From Podarcis gaigeae (lineage: Eukaryota): a DNA stretch of 64,000 bases. The notes beneath the pieces are model-generated. The model was given only the letters and a program-made list of their open reading frames with translations. It made no database searches and was not told where the DNA came from. The stretch lies in assembly GCA_964106915.2 (NCBI GenBank), contig OZ066920.1; one strand, given 5' to 3'. The position numbers were made by a program, and so were the translations under genes. Below are positions 1 through 61,272 of this stretch, piece by piece (within the stretch, counting starts at the first letter, position 1; each line of letters starts with the position of its first letter).

Positions 1-124
1 GCTCATCGATGGCCAGAATGAGCTGTATCAAATCACCATCAGGAACTTCCAATTTGTTGGAGGAGAGGAGAAATTTTAAGTCTCTTAAAAATTTCTGTTG
101 GGGAGTAGTCAAAGAACTGCCCAT
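1..124 (-). CDS. gag: Retroviral Gag N-terminus (matrix), betaretrovirus-like ERV; runs off the window edge
   Basis: Hand translation from ATG at 124: MGSSLTTPQQKFLRDLKFLLSSNKLEVPDGDLIQLILAIDE. Has the Gly2 myristoylation start and resembles MMTV/MPMV-type matrix. Lies downstream of an LTR, PBS and splice donor. Confidence 0.85.
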   Translation of the reverse strand, partial: MGSSLTTPQQKFLRDLKFLLSSNKLEVPDGDLIQLILAIDE

Positions 125-363
125 GTTTCTAAAATCAATATAAAAGGGATCAAACTCACCAGGGATCTTTTTTTAAAGATGTATAAGCGCTTTGAAATCC
201 TTGCCGGACGTGGTGAGCCGATGATATCCACTGCTTGGATCGAAAGTCCTCTCACAGTGTCTTTTAAAATCCTCTTAGTCTGCCTCAGACTGTTTCCTTT
301 AAGTTGCTTCTCTCGGTTCTCTTTGAAGTTTGAAGTCAGTCTCACACTGCTTCCTTTAGCCAG
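109..363 (-). CDS. Putative pre-gag (leader) ORF of the ERV, 84 aa, non-AUG (CTG) start
   Basis: Frame is stop-free from 435 to the stop ending at 109. In-frame CTG at 363 has A at -3 and G at +4. K/R-rich with a hydrophobic C-terminus. Overlaps gag by 16 nt in another frame. Confidence 0.4.
   Translation of the reverse strand: MAKGSSVRLTSNFKENREKQLKGNSLRQTKRILKDTVRGLSIQAVDIIGSPRPARISKRLYIFKKRSLVSLIPFILILETWAVL
154..162 (-). promoter_or_regulatory. Probable ERV major splice donor
   Basis: Minus-strand CTG|GTGAGT about 35 nt upstream of the gag ATG, the usual position of a retroviral major donor. Confidence 0.6.
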
Positions 364-400
364 CCTCCTTTCTTTTAAGTTTTCCTCTTCTTTTAATTGA

Positions 401-418
401 GCCTCAGAGAGGGCACCA
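401..418 (-). promoter_or_regulatory. Primer-binding site complementary to elongator tRNA-Met
   Basis: Plus strand 399-418 GAGCCTCAGAGAGGGCACCA matches the 3' end (with CCA) of vertebrate elongator tRNA-Met(CAT) as I recall it. It starts 2 nt after the LTR's terminal CA. Confidence 0.85.
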
Positions 419-420
419 CT

Positions 421-743
421 TGTTGGAGCCTGCCGTTACAAGTGGCACTTCTTTAGGGTAAAATAAAGACCCAGAAAGCCAGTAATATTTCCATAATATG
501 AGAGGGCAGCTCGTTCATGCTTCTTCTCCTCTCCGGTCACTTTTTATTGTCCTTTGTTCTGTCCATCCGCATGGCCGTTTGCCAATCTCATGTTACCTAC
601 ATCCGGCCAAGCTTTTATTGCTCCCCATCGCCATATAGGGTCATTACATTCCAATGCATTGTAAAGCTCAGAGTGCTGGTCACGAGGTCCAGAGGTACCC
701 TGCATCATTTACAAACCTCTGCCATGGCTTTATGACTCCCACA
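421..743 (-). mobile_element. 5' LTR of a betaretrovirus-like ERV (323 bp)
   Basis: Minus strand starts TGTGGGAG and ends CTCCAACA (imperfect terminal inverted repeat). Two CAATAAAA motifs (TATA-like near 613-620, polyA-like near 543-548). Directly followed by the PBS. Confidence 0.85.
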
Positions 744-1189
744 AGAGCTTCCTCAGTCATGTGTTCTGTTGCATCTTGAAAGCCATCTCCATTCACTAAG
801 GAGTTTAAGATATTCAGTGAGTTTGTATAAAGTAACCTCCGTCAGCTGTTTCTGTCAACCAGTCAGTCCTCAACCAGGGCTGGTAGCAGGATGCACCAAA
901 ATTAGGTGGTTAACCTCTGTAAGCAGATGCTATGGGAGTGAGACAATGAGATCCCATCTCACATATGGAAGCATGCTTTGAGGTCCTCAGATCGTGGGTG
1001 AAATATTAAATTACTCCTTGTCTATTTCTTTAGTACTAGGGGAAACACTTTTTGTCATCACACCCCCAGAGAAAACTCAAAATCACATCAGCCCCAGCTA
1101 AAATGGTCAATAGTCAGGAATTATGGGCATTGTAGCCTCTCAATATCTGGAGGGCCACAGGTTAGCTACTACTAACCTGTAAATTTGCC

Positions 1190-9677: not shown

Positions 9678-9736
<59 letters not shown>

Positions 9737-9751
9737 TTGTTGTTGTTGTTG
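9678..9751. repeat. (AAT)n followed by (TTG)n microsatellite
   Basis: Direct observation. Confidence 0.97.
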
Positions 9752-10230
9752 TAAAAAACAGAGACATCACCTTACCAACAAAGGTCCGTATAGTTAAAGC
9801 CATGGTTTTCCCAGTAGTGGTATATGGAAGTGAGAGCTGGACCATAAAGAAGGCTGATCGCCGAAGAATTGATGCTTTTGAATTATGGTGCTGGAGGAGA
9901 CTCTTGAGAGTCCCATGGACTGCAAGAAGACCAAACGTATCCATTCATAAGGAAATCAGCTCTGAGTGCTCACTGGAAGGACAGATCGTGAGTCTGAGAC
10001 TCCAATACTTTGGCTACCTCATGAGAAGAGAAGACTTGCTGGAAAAGACCCTGATGTTGGGAAAGATTGAGGGCACAAGGAGAAGAGGACGACAGAGGAC
10101 GAGATGGTTGGACAGTGTTCTCAAAGCTACGAACATGAGTTTGACCAAACTGCGGGAGGCAGTGGAAGACAGGAGTGCCTGGCGTGCTCTGGTCCATGGG
10201 GTCACAAAGAGTCAGACACGACTAAACGAC

Positions 10231-10264
<34 letters not shown>
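9752..10264 (+). mobile_element. Bov-B (RTE clade) LINE, 5'-truncated, with (AAC)n tail
   Basis: ORF 9802-10233 (MVFPVVVYGSESWTIKKADRRRIDAFELWCWRRLLRVPWTARR...AWRALVHGVTKSQTRLND) is the characteristic Bov-B C-terminus, frame intact. Confidence 0.95.
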
Positions 10265-26046: not shown

Positions 26047-26411
26047 GTAAAGGTAAAGGTACCCCTGCCCGTACGGGCCAGTCGTGTCCGACTCTAGGGT
26101 TGTGCGGCCATCTCACTTAAGAGGCCGGGGGCCAGCGCTGTCCGGAGACACTTCCGGGTCACATGGCCAGCGTGACGAAGCTGCTCTGACGAGCCAGCAC
26201 CAGCACCGCACACGGAAACACCATTTACCTTCCCGCTATAAAGCGGTACCTATTTATCTACTTGCACTTAGGGGTGCTTTCGAACTGCTAGGTAGGCAGG
26301 CGCTGGGACCGAACAACGGGAGCTCACCCCGCCGCGGGGATTCAAACCGCCGACCATGCGATTGGCAAGCCCTAGGCGCTGAGGTTTTACCCACAGCGTC
26401 ACCCGCGTCCC
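26047..26411 (-). mobile_element. Sauria SINE, full length
   Basis: Reverse-complement homolog of 30874-31236 with an (ACCTTT)n tail. Confidence 0.95.
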
Positions 26412-26482
26412 AGACATATCAGATATTAAGCTGATAAGAACAGATACTACACTTGATCTTAGCCAAAAGGCTGAGAAGCGAT
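26412..26482 (-). pseudogene. RNU2: U2 snRNA 5' fragment (nt 1 to about 71), retrocopy
   Basis: ATCGCTTCTCAGCCTTTTGGCTAAGATCAAGTGTAGTATCTGTTCTTATCAGCTTAATATCTGATATGTC matches the U2 5' end, including the GTAGTA branch-point-pairing motif, with a few substitutions. Confidence 0.95.
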
Positions 26483-30873: not shown

Positions 30874-31236
30874 GGGATGCGGGTGGCGCTGTGGGTAAAA
30901 GCCTCAGCGCCTAGGGCTTGCCGATCGAAAGGTCGGCGGTTCGAATCCCCGCGGCGGGGTGCGCTCCCGTTGCTCGGTCCCAGCGCCTGCCAACCTAGCA
31001 GTTCGAAAGCACCCTCGGGTGCAAGTAGAAAAATAGGGACCGCTTTCTAGCGGGAAGGTAAACGGCGTTTCCGTGTGCAGCTCTGGCTCGCCAGAGCAGC
31101 GATGTCACACTGGCCACGTGACCCGGAAGTGTCTTCGGACAGCGCTGGCCCCTGGCCTCTTGAGTGAGATGGGCGCACAACCCCAGAGTCTGGCAAGACT
31201 GGCCTGTACGGGCAGGGGTACCTTTACCTTTACCTT
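30874..31236 (+). mobile_element. Sauria SINE (young, CpG-rich)
   Basis: Consensus motifs; TSD TAAGTTGCACAGA at 30857-30869 and 31237-31249. Confidence 0.97.
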
Positions 31237-34104
31237 TAAGTTGCACAGAAGATATGTAGGGTACAATCCTATTCATCCTTACATAGAAGTAAGTCTTAAA
31301 AACAGTTATGAGTCTAATATCTGGGTACATATTTTCAGGATAGGGTTGTTATATGTTAAATTTCTTTTTCTTTTTTTTATTCTCAGAGATATTTGCAAAG
31401 TTTTGACAGATCTGAAAGTAAATCAATCCTGAACTGGAGTCTATGCTTGCAATGTGACAGTAACAGTTGGATAATATCAACATGGTGTTCTGATATGTGG
31501 TGCAGTTCAGAATTTCCTGTCCTCCAAAGTACTTGTTTTCTTGTGGGGCCAACTTCAGGACTTAATTTTTTGAAATTTCAATGTCACAAATCCCAAGTCT
31601 GTAAACTTGGATGGAATGCTGATCTAACTCTGTATTGATCTCTCCATATTTTTAAGCAGTAGAAGACACTAACAAATGCAACACAGTTTTATCCAGCCAG
31701 TTTTCACCAGCATACCTCATGTCTTTTCATGTTAAATTGTGCTTTATAAGATATGACTTGACGTGACTTAACACAATCCTGGAGAATATGACATTAAATG
31801 ATGTGACATGGTGGAAATTTGCAAACGACAACCAGAAGATCCACTTTGCCTGGAGGACCTGGGTAATCTCATTGTATTTCTTCTAAACCATTTACTACAT
31901 CTTTAACTCTCAGAACCAATGGTGCATCTTTTGAACATCAGTTGTCATGTTGTGCCTTGACCTTCACGCAACCATGACAGACTCAACAGGTCAATCTCAT
32001 CAGTTTCTTCTGTATGATAAACATATATATCCCATATAGTTTGTGTGTAAGAAATATCTAGACTAAAGAAAAAGGTTATGTTTGAATAATCACCTTATTT
32101 TGATCTTAACAGATGAGGATAAGACAAGACATGGCATGCTTACGGAGACAGCAACCCAATAGCTGAGATAATCATTATATTTTTACAGGATATCAAAGCT
32201 ACAATGTCTTATTTTCCTAACCAGAGCTTACAGAGTTACAAAACATTCTGTAATGGACAGGGTGGTGGGATGACACTGCTCACCTGACCTCTGGTCAGTC
32301 ATGTCGCTGCTGTTTACTGGACAGTAGCAGGTGAACAGTAAGGTGGTGGCAAGATCAGTGTGGAGCAAATCTGACACACCTGCCATGTGTTTGCACCACA
32401 CCAACCTTCCTGCTTCCTCCTCTCTGTCCCTTCTATCTGGCAGTAAGCAGCAGCAACACAACCAACTGGATGTCAGGTGAGTGGTTGTGCCCCACCATCC
32501 TGTCCTCTACTGAAAAAGTTGTTGCGGTGATGCAAACTGGAGGACAACTTTATAAGAAATGTAAGGCTTATGATACATTCATGCTCTGATAAGGTAGGTA
32601 CTAACACTCCCCCCCCCCAAGAGCAACTGGATTATTCACCAAAATCATCTTCATTTTTTAAACCTCATACCACAACTACAGCTGCTAGGTTTAGGTATGA
32701 GAGAACCGCTTCTGGAGAGTAAAGAAGCACACAGCTGGGTGTCATCAGCCAGGTGTTTCAGGTGGAAAAACATCTGTGCTGGTAAAATATTTATGAGTGA
32801 ATCTGTTTAGGGTCAGGTTGAAATGAACCATTTTACAAAGGCCATGGCAATTCACATTTACGGAGTTAGAGAACAGCCTGGTTTTTCGCATCCTGATTCA
32901 CAGCGTTGTTTAAGGTGTGGAAGTGTTGAATTTAGTCCTTGACTTCACTTAAAATTGTGGATCGAGCTACAGGCAGGCTATTTATGATTACACTGGAAAT
33001 TGCATTTCAGATACTTTCCTTTTTAAAATTTATAGCTTAGTTAATTTTGCCAATTTCTTCTTTCTTGCCCTCCCTAATTCCTGTTGTTGTCTTAGTGGAA
33101 ATTGGACGAAGACCTAGATTAATATGTTCCTGTATATTATCCTACATACTCTAATTGATTAATTGCTGGGATTCTTAGAAAGGGAAACATAAAACCAGCT
33201 TTCCTAAACATAAAACAGCTTTGTCAGGCCTTCAGTTGAAGGTGGAAATTAGATCAAAAGTTGCTGTTGAGATGTTACCAAAAAAGCTGAAAATGATTTA
33301 AACTGATATACAGATATACTTTTTAAAATGTAATTTCATTTAAATGTAAAATAGCACTGCTTCTCTTTTGTCAGTCAGTGTTTTCTCCACCCCAAAAATC
33401 CTGTATTTATTCTTGTAAAAATACATAAAATGTTTCACTCATCTGGAAAAAAAAATTCTGGCTTTTCAATATTCATTTAATTTGCTGTACTATCTTGGAG
33501 TGACTAAGAAGGGCAGGTTTTGTTTTTCTCTAAATGTATCATTTTAAGCTTTACAGCTTGGTGCAGGAAGCAGAAAACGGATGGAGAATAACAAAGAATG
33601 CAAATAATATGAGGTTTGCTATACACAAAAGTGAAGGTCTAATTAAGAAGAGCACAAAGGTGTATCAAGGCATGATCATAACAGGTTAGAAATGAATACT
33701 TTTTCTATATGCTGCATGCAGGTGAGAAAAGATGTATTTATCTGTTAGAATACAAAGCAATATTCATTACATGTTTTGTATTACATTTTTTAAATGCTCA
33801 AAAACAGTCTCTGTTTTCTATGTGGTGGCAAATTCAGTTAACATGATTTGTTTCATCAGTGCATTTTTATAATTTGCTTTCTGCATAATTTGTTGGAAAA
33901 GTGAGAGAGAAAAGACTGGAGTGAAAGGATGGCTACTTGCGGAAAGCCCAAGTGTAAAGATGGGAGCAGCTGAGAGGATGCAGGGTGATATGATGCTGGG
34001 ACAGAGCTTAAAATAAAGAAGTTAAATTAGATGTAAGTGTGCGTTTCTGTGTTTGGCCATTTTGGCTAAGCCACACCCACCTGCCCATCATATGACATCA
34101 GGGG

Positions 34105-37767: not shown

Positions 37768-39102
37768 GTTTTCGGAGCTCCAGATATGCATAATCACTAG
37801 TATTGCTTTCTTACATAAAATGTTTGCTGGAGGCCTAGACGGGGCAAATTTGCTAGCATTTTCTATAAGTGGGAATAGGCAAGTACATTGGCACATACAG
37901 TAATCCTGAGGTTTAGACTGGAATCTACTGTGGTCACCCTTGAGATTCATAGTGAAAGGTAATACATTACAAAATCTCAGCTGGCACCATGCATATGACA
38001 ATGAGATATGTGTTTATGCCAGGGTGGAAACCTAACACTCCTTTCACAGATACTGGCCACTTTAGCACCAGATAACTATCTATTGCCTTACCTGGCTGGA
38101 GTGATAGCTTTAGGATAGCTTTAGGGAAGTGAAATGAAATTAAAGATATGGGTTGGTTATAGGGGTCTGGGTCTTCTCTCTGAGCTCCATCTTGAGGTGA
38201 ACAGGAGAAGTTTCTATCTTTTCTGTAACAGATATGCTTTTCAAATAAAAGCTCATTGATCATTATTCCTACCGTGTTGATTGAGTAATTACAAAAGGAC
38301 TCCGCTATTCTTCAGAGACCTAGCATTAAAGTTTCTCAGGGTGGTCTGGAAGGAGCCATTTGTGACAGGAGTTAATAAATAAATCCAGCCAAATCAGGTA
38401 CTTCATTAGGAGGTAAAACATCCATAAATTATCCTTCACTGTTTTAGACTTCATGATTCAAAGGAACTACAGTGCATGTTTGTCTTAAGGACAATTGAGA
38501 AGACTTGTTCCACTCTTCAGTTATCATCCTATTTCCAAGCTTTTCACCAACATAAACTTTATATATTTGTTTCAGCAAGTTAATGCTATAATTGCTGCAG
38601 TGGATAAGGGGTTTTGTCATTTATTTTAAGAAAGGGCACAGTAACAAAGGTTCTGAAAGATACAGCTAAGAATGTGTGTGTCCATGCAAACATAGCAATC
38701 TTAAATATTTACATTTTAAAGTGCACATAGAGAAGTGGCTTCAAACTAATTTTTTATTTAAATGGCAAAAGGATCATACGCAAGTGTGCCACCAGCACCT
38801 TGTATCCCCCATCCCCATATACAGAGTTCCAGAAGCTTTGCCTCTCATACTAACCTCTGCCCTTTCAAATTTCAGAAATGCATTTAGAAATGAAACATCA
38901 GAGGCTGCCCTGCCAGACAATTCAAATCAAAACAAAAATGGGGGGGGGGCAGAGATTGCTATTGTTCGCATATGCATTCATTGTCAGGACCAGATTAACT
39001 TCATGCAAATGCAAGTGGCAATTGTAGACTGCAATCCTAAACCTGCTTACTTCAGAGCAGACGTGGTTAGGATTGCAAACTTTGCAATACTGCAGGAACT
39101 TA

Positions 39103-39417
39103 AAAGGTAAAGGTAAAGGACCCCTGACAGTTAGGTCCACTCGCAGACGACTCTGGGGTTGTGGCACCCATCTCACTTTACAGGCTGAAGGAGCCGGTGT
39201 TTGTCCACAGACAGTTTTTCCAGGTCATATGGCCAGCATGACTGAGCTGATTCTGGTGAAACCTGAGCAGCGCATGGAAATGGCGTTTACCTTCCTGCCG
39301 GAGTGGTACCTATTTATCTACTTGCACTTTTTGGTGTCCTTTCAAACTGCTAGGTTGGCAGGAGCTGAGACCAAGCAACGGAAGCACACCCTGTCATGGG
39401 GATTTGAACTGCCAACC
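39103..39417 (-). mobile_element. Sauria SINE, 5'-truncated
   Basis: Consensus motifs in antisense. Confidence 0.9.
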
Positions 39418-39526
39418 CGAGGTTGGGACTTACTTTTCAGTAAACATACACACACTAAAGCTGCAATCCTAAACCCACATATGTGGGAGTTGTTGATATT
39501 TGTCTGTCTCAAGAGACCATTGAGTG

Positions 39527-40185
39527 TGCCTCCAGGGGTGAAGTCAAAGCTCAGTGTTAGCAGTACCAAAGTGACCTTCCTGGGGCACAAGTCTGGGCAG
39601 TGTGTACGGAGGTCCTGGGCTGCCCAGATGAGAAGACTCGGTGGTGTGGTCCAAAGGAAAGCAGAGCAGTATGTTTGGCATCAGCTTGGCTGCTGGAGTT
39701 GCTGGAAGTAGGCATACAAGGCACTATCCAACCATCTTAGGGACTCTATTTCAGATTTGTGTAGGGTTTACTCATGAGTCTTTTCTCCTCCTGAAGTTAT
39801 CCCACAAGGAAGTGGAGGTTTAGGATCAGAGTTTTCCTTCTCCTAGATGGGCTACCTTCCCAGGTTGATGAACCCCAACTGCCCCTCACTTCCCTCTATA
39901 GCACATGCAGAAACCACTTTCTTGACCATTAGACCCACTATTGGTTTCATTTGCTCAATCTTCCAGAGCCTGTCTTCGCATGCAGGGAAATACCCAACTC
40001 ACTGAGGGTTTGAGAACCATTAGCTATCCTTTACTGGTTTAGTAGGCCAGTCGAAGCCATTTCCTGAGATGTGGCCTCTGTCACACGCTGACAACTTCTA
40101 GGAGCCACAGATGAGAGCTGAGTGTAGGGTGGGGACCAAAGGTGGACAAAGGAGTACGATGTGTCCCTCACCAGAGGTAGTACTC
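39527..40185 (-). mobile_element. RTE-derived non-autonomous (5'UTR + 3' end) element
   Basis: Antisense AGCCCATCTAGGAGAAGGAAAACTCTGA (RTE 5'UTR-type motif) and a TGACTTCACCCCTGGAGGCA end; no RT ORF. Confidence 0.55.
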
Positions 40186-48826: not shown

Positions 48827-49213
48827 AAGGGTGAAAGGTAAAGGACCCCTGGACAGTTAAGTCCAGTCGAAGGCGACTATGGGGTTGTGAGGCTCATCTC
48901 ACTTTCAGGCCAAGGGAGCCTGCGTTTGCCCACAGAAAGCTTTCCAGGTCATGTGGCCAGCATGACGAAACTGCTTCTGGTGCAATGGAACACCATGATG
49001 GAAACCAGGGCGCATGGAAATGCTGTTTACTTTTCCTCTGCAGCGGTACCTATTTATCTATACTTGCATTGGTGTGCTTTTGAACTGCTAGGTTGGCAGG
49101 AGCTGGGACAGAACAACGGGAGCTCACCCTGTTGCGGGGATTTGAACTGCCAACCTTCTCATCAGCAAGCCCAAGAGGCTCAGTGGTTTAGATCACAGCA
49201 CCACCCGAGTACC
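48827..49213 (-). mobile_element. Sauria SINE
   Basis: Consensus motifs; flanking CACACCTTA duplication. Confidence 0.92.
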
Positions 49214-50258
49214 TGTAGCACACACCTTATTCGCTATCCAGCAGTGGGAAGGGGCAAATCCGCCCCTTATGCCAGCCGTTGACTGAAGAAGCACCATTCT
49301 TTGCCATAAGACTATTCAGACAATGGAAATGATAAAACAAGCAGGAGATTTTTATAACACATTCAATTGATTAAAAAGATATCAAAGGCTATAGGGTCCG
49401 ACGAGCAACATTTTCAGGATTATGGAATCTTTGGGGTGTTTTCAGACTGCTTCTGAAAAGCTGGCCTCAAGCAGGGCTGAGTAATGTTGAGCAGACCTAA
49501 ATGAACCCCAGTCCAAGAAGGTAATGAAGTGACATGTTTGGGAACACTCTTTGTAAATAACCTCAATTAATTTCCTTGATGTTTTTTTCCGAGTTTGAGG
49601 TTTTGTCTTGATGGGCAAATTGCAGGTTGCATGGAGGCTATTTATGGTTCTGCCAACTTGTTATGTTTTAATTGAAGTAGGATGTACTTGTCCTTGCTTA
49701 TGCAGCACTGTTGCCCTTTCAAAGGTGAAGGCAGGATGGCATGTGACTTCAGAATGTGCAGTCTGAGGAACACAATATTAAGCGACACCCCCTTCTATTA
49801 AACTATGTAACCGAGGAAGAAGACCAAAGAAAGGCATACATTGCTGTTAGCCTGAGGGTAGGCAGCAGGGTTCTTATTAATGCAGCAGTGTTGCCATCGG
49901 CTTCAAAATCCTGTTGTTTCTAACATTCTGCATAAATACATTACTGTAACTTTTTTAAAAAGGTAAAGTCTCTGAATCTTTGCTAGTTTTGTTTATCCAT
50001 GAAGAGTAAGTTGACAGCACATGAGAAACGTGTTGAAACAAAAATATCAGCAAGAGGGATGTCCTTTTCCAGAGGGACCCACAGGAGGGGAGAACACTCT
50101 TTTGTTTGGGTCCTGCTTGCAGACTTCCCACAAGCATCTGTGTTACCACTGTGAGAACAGGATGCCAGACAAAGTGAACCGTTGGTGTGATCCAGAAGGA
50201 CTCACTTCTTATGTTCTCACAGAGTTGCCACTAAGTGCCTTATGCAAGGTATTTATTC

Positions 50259-60349: not shown

Positions 60350-60707
60350 GGGACGCGGGTGGAGCTGTGGGATAAACCACAGAGCCTAGGACTTGCCGAT
60401 CAGAAGGTCAGCGGTTTGAATCCCCGCGATGGGGTGAGCTCCCATTGCTCGGTCCCTGCTCCTGCCAACCTAGAGTTCGAAAGCACGTCAAAGTGCAAGT
60501 AGATAAATAGGTACAGCTCCTGCGGGAAGGTAAACAGTGTTTCTGTGCGCTGCTCTGGTTCACCAGAAGCAGCTTAGTCATGCTGGCCACATGACCCAGA
60601 AGCTGTACACCGGCTCCCTTGGCCAATAAAGCGAGATGAGTGCCGAAACCCCAGAGTCGGCCACAACTGGACCTAATTGTCAGGGGTCCCTTTACCTTTA
60701 CCTTTAC
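60350..60707 (+). mobile_element. Sauria SINE
   Basis: Consensus motifs; TSD CTTGCACGGTTC/CTTGCATGGTTC. Confidence 0.96.
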
Positions 60708-61272
60708 CTTGCATGGTTCGTAAGGCAGAAGGTTCTTTGAAAACCTTATCTGAAACCTGGGAATGTGCCATGATGGAATGATGTATTGGGCTGCAGTCCA
60801 TGAGGTTGTGGGTAGTCATAGGAAGTTATTACAATCCCTGAAGCACAGGTGAGCAATTTTCAGGGTTCTGCAACATCTAGAAACTTAATTGCTGGTAATT
60901 AGCCGGTTGGTCAGGGTAGGGCTAACAACCACGGGTCATCCTTTCATGTAACCGAGAGCTGACTATATTCCCCTCACAAAGCCACAATTCTCAGTGTTCC
61001 CTGGAAAGATGGATTGATTGTTAAACCACCCTGGGGATTGTGTAGCTCCGTGAGGGAAATAGGGAACCCATAACAACACTTAGCACCCTTAACAAGCTCC
61101 CAGAATTCTTTGGAAGAAGCCATGAATCTTTAAAATTATATCAAGGTTTGAATGTATGGTGTGAATGTGGCCTGTGATGAGATCCAAGGAGCTTCATGAT
61201 GGAGTGGGGATTTGAACCTTGGTTTCCTCAGGTAGGGTTGCTGACCACATTTCTCCTTCTTATGTTATTGAC

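Follow-up and report, generated by a model that had tools for sequence, protein, structure and literature searches.

A shortened, very probably non-autonomous member of a lizard class II endogenous retrovirus family with a primer-binding site for elongator tRNA-Met

Introduction

The first 743 nt of a 64,000-nt stretch of Podarcis gaigeae DNA (G000:C16:42966001-43030000; the whole stretch is called the window) carry the signals of the 5' end of an endogenous retrovirus (ERV), all of which read on the minus strand. A sequence-only reading had described them as the start of a young, possibly complete provirus of a little-described, betaretrovirus-like squamate lineage, primed by elongator tRNA-Met. 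The locus raises the questions of what the element is, how it was copied and which tRNA primes it. The ERV at window positions 1-743 is referred to as the focal copy and its relatives in the same genome as the focal family. Positions 1-743 very probably belong to a non-autonomous derivative, 2.8 kb long, of a beta-like class II ERV family of lizards, and form its 5' end.

Results

Structure of the focal copy

The coordinates of the determined features are presented in Table 1. The bounds of the 5' LTR were fixed by the second LTR copy and by the 6-bp duplication AGAGCT, and they agreed exactly with the 323 bp and the TG...CA ends read earlier. The target-site duplication (TSD), predicted as AGAGCT if 6 bp long, was found in that form on both flanks, and the 2-nt spacer and the splice-donor motif were located as described. 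GTGAGT of the latter was present in 64 of 65 copies with two LTRs. The claimed 20-nt match of the primer-binding site (PBS) to elongator tRNA-Met was reproduced in pattern searches of host tRNAs, with 20 of 20 positions identical to the host gene at C25:12.035 Mb. The arrangement of LTR and PBS is not due to chance, since a 20-nt tRNA match stands two bases behind an LTR, and a pattern composed of the LTR end and the PBS matched 68 loci in the genome and its reversed control none. No tRNA gene was detected in the window by ARAGORN. The ratio of observed to expected CpG was 0.43 in positions 1-743 versus 0.23 in the remaining window, in accordance with the noted retention of CpGs.

Table 1. Features of the focal copy (window positions unless a contig is given).
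Feature	Position	Strand	Remarks
Target-site duplication AGAGCT	744..749	+	Present once at the unoccupied site of run X7; the other copy lies past the 3' LTR, to the left of the window
5' LTR, 323 bp, TG...CA (TGTG...AACA)	421..743	-	Bounds from second LTR and TSD
AATAAA motifs within the 5' LTR	619-614 and 548-543	-	
3' LTR, outside the window	G000:C16:42963967-42964289		3 differences in 323 (320/323 identical) to the 5' LTR
Spacer AG, 2 nt, between LTR and PBS	419..420	-	
PBS for elongator tRNA-Met(CAT), C25:12.035 Mb isodecoder	399..418	-	18-nt site at 418-401, with 20 nt matched in all
Leader, presumed packaging region (from position)	125..398	-	Retained in mapped copies
Splice-donor motif CTG|GTGAGT, predicted	154..162	-	29 nt ahead of the gag ATG
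gag start, matrix, MGSSLT myristoylation motif	1..124	-	Runs on left of the window

The gag ATG at position 124 stands in a strong Kozak context and 41 codons fall within the window. The description of an uninterrupted, myristoylated Gag start held for these codons but not beyond them, as the frame stops after 107 codons, left of the window.

The focal element measured 2,777 bp from LTR to LTR, with the 3' LTR about 2 kb to the left of the window. Its internal order was determined as PBS, leader, matrix, a capsid scrap, a reverse transcriptase (RT) piece, a few C-terminal codons of integrase, the start and end of env, the polypurine tract (PPT) and the 3' LTR. The matrix region matched Pfam Gag_p10 (4e-11), and the 290-nt RT piece covered RVT_1 profile positions 23-141 of 205. 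The YxDD motif, protease, the integrase core and the env ectodomain were absent from the 2,777-bp element. Of what had been expected to the left of the window, the 3' LTR and the TSD were thus found, and the genes gag, pro, pol and env only as scraps at best.

Mapping of the focal copy onto the natural long copy L074 revealed three deletion junctions: J1 from capsid to RT, J2 from RT to the end of integrase and J3 within env. The overlaps at J2 and J3 were imperfect short similarities, and J1 contained about 11 unmatched bases. The signals acting in cis (two LTRs, PBS, leader and PPT) were kept, whereas pro is gone entirely, gag and pol for the most part, and env in its middle portion. LTRs, PBS, PPT and a TSD of its own without a working pol are the properties of a non-autonomous ERV derivative.

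Elsewhere in the window, a LINE scrap was observed at 9736-10233, presumably Bov-B/RTE-like from its translation, and repeat copies at 26057-26434, 31037-31432, 39028-39711, 48842-49282 and 60408-60815, which, also from translations, we take to be Sauria-SINE-like. No long host ORF was found in the 64,000 nt.

The focal family in the genome

The 68 census loci and three loci from a DNA search were examined (71 in all), and at 65 of them the fetched sequence included both LTRs. The other six were left out as the exact PPT and 3' LTR were not in the fetched stretch; automatic calls of the 3' LTR end could not be relied on at about three loci. An exact 6-bp TSD was determined for 57 of the 65 two-LTR loci. 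The median identity of their LTR pairs was 99.1%, with 60 pairs at 98% or above, seven at 100% and five below 95%. The elements were 2.6-5.2 kb long at 62 loci and longer than 6 kb at three. With a tolerance of 12 nt, J1 was shared by 18, J2 by 42 and J3 by 56 of the 65 loci, and all three junctions by 18. Three small groups (L097/L098, L103/L131/L132 and L137/L138) shared the TSD and adjoining bases, which leaves about 61 independent insertions. Solo LTRs were flanked by TSDs in all five cases fetched.

The same junctions at distinct sites indicate that the deleted forms were themselves copied. As these forms have no pol, the enzymes would have been supplied in trans, by a reasoning that also applies to IAP 1-delta-1 and ETn (PMC6466679), and we infer that the focal short form is probably a non-autonomous derivative copied in this way. 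The long relatives have the LTR type, PBS and PPT of the short copies, and their RT DNA is about 95% identical. The full RT region was detected in at least five long copies (RT search, 150 of 505 candidates scored). None of the five long copies examined had all four genes open, each being broken in at least one, and consequently a helper was not identified in the assembly.

At two loci, L012 and L026, the 6-bp TSD is intact and yet the identity of the LTR pair is only 90-93%; the LTR of the focal copy shares 96% identity with the 3' LTR of L012. This points to recombination of LTR subtypes in the course of reverse transcription or to gene conversion.

The distribution of the loci was uneven: C32 (29.5 Mb, 1.9% of the genome) contained 17 of the 68 PBS matches (25%) and many other class II RT matches. 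The enrichment would fit C32 being a W chromosome that serves as a refuge for ERVs.

Primer usage

Among seven anticodon-arm matches found in the host by pattern searches and ARAGORN, five were genes of elongator tRNA-Met(CAT) with four different 3' ends. A host gene with initiator features, presumably an initiator by its A1-U72 pair and ATCG T-loop, differs from the PBS match at its 3' end. The PBS was complementary to the elongator and not the initiator tRNA-Met in all 68 pattern matches.

The census pattern permitted 32 different 18-mers, of which three were observed: type A at 61 loci, type B at five and type C at two. Type A equals the C25:12.035 Mb isodecoder; type B, which differs by three linked changes, equals the tRNA-Met genes on C16 and C17; and type C, with one change, equals the gene at C25:12.041 Mb. 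No intermediates between the three types were present among the 68 loci, and the fourth host isodecoder was not used. Single-base PBS departures that matched no tRNA found were detected at three of the 71 loci. In a quick tree of the leaders, the five type-B copies were spread over four or more positions. Since recombination between copies is visible in the five LTR pairs below 95% identity, the scattering of the variants may partly reflect recombination.

Such a pattern would be expected if the progeny PBS is a copy of the primer's 3' end, a process described for both HIV/SIV (PMC4549124) and ETn/MusD (PMC7472051). The one-to-one correspondence of PBS variants to host tRNA-Met isodecoders supports, from sequence alone, that elongator tRNA-Met is the actual primer of the focal family. 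The PBS of a sister family (see below) matches type B over 15 nt, which extends the probable use of Met beyond one family. The earlier statement that Met priming is uncommon, with HML-5 as an exception, was borne out: a Met PBS has been described in class II for HML-5 (PMC3778440, PMC1779541) and in 33 of 87 HERV-L chains (PMC4724089).

Mixed tRNA gene clusters were observed at L031, L035 and L041 (C25 near 12.03-12.04 Mb and C2 near 116.69 Mb), with the contents Leu, Ile, Met, Lys; Met, Lys, initiator Met; and Glu, Met, Phe.

Classification

The domains were called from natural open frames spread over different long copies. Gag contained p10, p24 and two zinc knuckles (two CCHC knuckles in L073, L074 and L075), Pro the protease, Pol the RT, RVT_thumb, RNase H and integrase with IN_DBD_C, and Env the TLV_coat domain. 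In L074 the gag, pro and pol frames were 1/0/2 (-1/-1), with slippery-like heptamers in both overlaps. The best PDB match of RT was 7SR6 with 464 bits, compared to 207 bits for HIV; that of integrase was 7USF/3JCA with 201 bits, RSV-type entries reaching 150 bits and below; and the best Gag matches were ERVK-type. We take 7SR6 to be HERV-K, 7USF and 3JCA MMTV and 5EJK RSV. The nearest database RTs were those of Varanus (60% identical) and of sea turtles and Naja (56-57%).

RT and Pol group with class II and not with Gypsy or gammaretroviruses; in the RT tree the split from gamma-like rows was at 100/100. The careful tree comprised 31 of the 62 rows of the quick tree and no ALV, MMTV, JSRV, HML-5, python or lentivirus RT. 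In these 31 rows the focal and the sister family were joined at 84/88. Both stood in an unresolved fork with reptile ERVs, separate from the SRV/IAP clade (89/88) and, with weak values (85/54), from the mammal and bird ERVK group. A join with a Varanus protein in the quick tree (95 SH-aLRT, with a long Gypsy-like row present) fell open in the careful tree.

The pro region of the focal family aligns with dUTPase but its catalytic motifs are lost. A Pfam dUTPase match was obtained with none of its three pro frames and with all six from two related families; a Pfam G-patch was found in none of the nine. An AlphaFold2 model of the pro frame, made for a dUTPase-like fold, was unusable (mean pLDDT 32.7).

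Env is of gamma type, with CWLC, an immunosuppressive motif, CX6CC and TLV_coat, and its best PDB matches were syncytins and MLV TM. It is 93% identical to Podarcis muralis LOC144326313, and the other named matches came from lacertids and snakes only, which supports the squamate host proposed earlier.

In the genus Betaretrovirus, a tRNA-Lys PBS is a marker (PMC3621094), together with dUTPase at the N-terminus and G-patch at the C-terminus of pro (PMC3621094, PMC1224870). The gamma-type (D) Env agrees with the genus, where beta-type (B) and gamma-type (D) Env both occur. The focal family is nevertheless a beta-like class II ERV and probably not a member of the genus, since the Lys PBS, dUTPase and G-patch marks were all lacking. 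Of the betaretrovirus-like assignment, the class II and beta-like part stood; the three genus marks were not found, and the RT lies outside the mammalian SRV/IAP clade.

Related families and RT motif variants

The sister family (L077, L078, L079, L084) is 70-77% identical to the focal family in RT (70% over 298 aa) and has YMDD and a weak Pfam dUTPase match. It is very young, with LTR pairs 99.7-100% identical, and L077 seems to be arranged in tandem. A third, more distant class II family (L080-L082, L085, L086) is largely located on C32, and its dUTPase is recognisable but motif-degenerate. The PBS of the third family begins TGGTGACCCC and presumably resembles the tRNA-Trp site of avian alpharetroviruses.

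YTDD (codon ACA or ACC) instead of YMDD was detected in L072, L073 and L074 of the focal family and in L080, L081 and L086 of the third family. YMDD was present in L076, L085 and the sister family. Among 132 scanned RT rows, YTDD occurred in five, all from this genome. A recombination tract explaining YTDD in the two families was sought and no shared DNA tract was seen; the motif looks convergent.

An insertion of 1.8 kb in the long copy L072 is rich in GC; it has short terminal inverted repeats and a duplication of 8 bp and contains a tandem array of 118 bp. It gave no Rfam and no credible Pfam match, and we presume that it is akin to a non-autonomous hAT transposon.

Age and presence of the insertion

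A related species, organism E, has an empty site here: a single contig of 1,382 nt from run X7 passes from one flank directly into the other and leaves out 2,783 nt, which corresponds to the element and one TSD. Contigs of organism A (runs X1, X2) and of organism B (run X4) reach from either flank 28-29 nt into the LTR ends, just short of the 31 nt required for a bridge, which suggests that the element or a solo LTR is present in organisms A and B. The flanks of X1 were without any difference, and X1 may be the source and hence not independent.

The flanks differed by about 0.8% from organism B (11/1,435) and by 1.4% from organism E (19/1,379), and each LTR of the focal copy has changed by about 0.5%. 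This fits an insertion between the splits of organism E and organism B, with the wide margin that three substitutions bring. At a borrowed primate substitution rate of 2.3-5e-9 (PMC3778440), the insertion is roughly 1-2 million years old. The proposed young age was thus upheld by the comparison of the LTRs (3/323 different) and by the empty site.

Origin and copying of the short form

The short subtype might keep a translated Gag-RT fusion of about 356 aa that aids its own packaging in cis, and the focal copy would have lost it after insertion; this is rather unlikely. At J1 the capsid frame continues into that of RT, and it stays open to the end of the RT piece in 11 of 18 short copies (323-356 aa), although not in the focal copy. 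The sole shared indel in the fusion frame is 15 nt long and all its frameshifts are private, compared to six shared frameshifting indels in the env remnant. A cis-packaging fusion has been reported for IAP 1-delta-1 (PMC6466679). The omega of the fusion was 0.50 for shared variants and 0.86 for singletons. However, the env remnant, which cannot make Env, has a similar omega of 0.46 for shared variants, so that helper genomes can have passed on the signal through recombination. Selection on the fusion, as an explanation of omega, was discarded because of this control. The difference between shared and singleton variants was also weak (Fisher p = 0.11), and at 0.5-1% change since insertion 67-81% of frames are expected to be stop-free under neutrality. 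Three apparent shared stops in the omega test stem from scoring the columns singly.

It is improbable that the helper was the younger sister family and not the long copies of the focal family itself. The sister family has at least seven RT matches with equal scores, nearly or fully identical LTR pairs and a Met-type PBS (isodecoder B), and the five long copies examined are all broken somewhere. Against this, the young short copies interleave with their own long copies in the leader tree, and no LTR or leader sequence of the sister family was seen in the short copies, in which only the RT piece aligns.

Separate deletion of each short copy from a full provirus after integration, or spread through segmental duplication, is very improbable. 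The three groups with common TSDs and adjoining bases are as duplication predicts, but the remaining loci have distinct TSDs with the same junctions within the 12-nt tolerance, which refutes this explanation for the bulk of the family.

A young, complete betaretrovirus provirus at the focal locus, to which the intact LTR, PBS, splice-donor motif, Gag start and retained CpGs had pointed and which the longer relatives in the genome might favour, is refuted by the 2,777-bp length and three internal deletions, the matching 3' LTR and TSD about 2 kb away, the stop in gag and the scraps of gag, RT, integrase and env that alone remain.

Discussion

The focal copy is best accounted for as a non-autonomous derivative. 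In the proposed mechanism, nested deletions would have arisen stepwise through template switching. The RNA of a short copy would be packaged by Gag and Pol from fuller members of the family, primed by elongator tRNA-Met, reverse-transcribed and integrated; copying of the tRNA primer into one strand would generate the PBS variants. The focal copy has probably been inert since its insertion.

The focal family is a young class II ERV family of reptiles with many copies and stands close to the base of the beta-like radiation, a region with variable primer tRNA, dUTPase and env type in which few reptiles have been sampled. Its copies may serve as a natural record of primer choice, and its nested deletions as one of a retrovirus shrinking in steps into a parasite of its own family. 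Due to their presence or absence between related species, the insertions could be used as markers. No rule is overturned by the family: each of its traits has a precedent, and Met-primed class II ERVs and such derivatives are known.

A broader proposal appears doubtful. A reptile class II branch might have been active in lacertids until very recently, with elongator tRNA-Met priming as a fixed trait (two families, RT about 70% identical), dUTPase decayed to a non-catalytic domain, RT working naturally with YTDD (two families, ACA/ACC codons, no shared DNA tract) and the Gag-RT fusion used in cis to hijack helper particles.

Class II ERVs are known in reptiles in general (PMC8922424), and alpha-like env has been described there (PMC13568524). 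No description of the focal family, or of YTDD in any ERV, was found in the mostly open-access literature searched, Repbase and Dfam being outside its scope. The lineage is little-described, as stated earlier; its reptile relatives are annotated automatically only. This applies both to the class II ERV proteins of Varanus, Naja and sea turtles, the best RT matches (56-60% identical), and to the Env counterparts in Podarcis, Zootoca, elapids and Crotalus.

The Python molurus ERV and the avian avibeta2 clade, which are basal class II, are described with -1/-1 frames and two zinc fingers and without dUTPase or G-patch; in avibeta2 the env is gamma-like and the PBS is that of Phe instead of Lys (PMC3482500, PMC1224870). 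The focal family differs from them in the elongator Met PBS and in a decayed dUTPase-like domain in pro; the python ERV is likened by description only. HERV-K(HML-5)/HERV-K22 is, like the focal family, a class II group with a methionine-tRNA PBS, and differs in being of primates and about 55 million years old (PMC3778440, PMC1779541). From the reptile grouping only, in a tree with no HML-5 RT, we infer that Met priming of the focal family probably arose independently of HML-5.

Close parallels are IAP 1-delta-1 and ETn/MusD of the mouse, described as keeping two LTRs, PBS and PPT around an internal gag-pol deletion, like the focal family (PMC6466679). They likewise outnumber their helpers, and 1-delta-1 also has an in-frame gag-pol fusion (PMC6466679). 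The focal family, in contrast, combines three nested deletions with env remnants, a Met primer and a lizard host, and a cis role of its fusion is putative.
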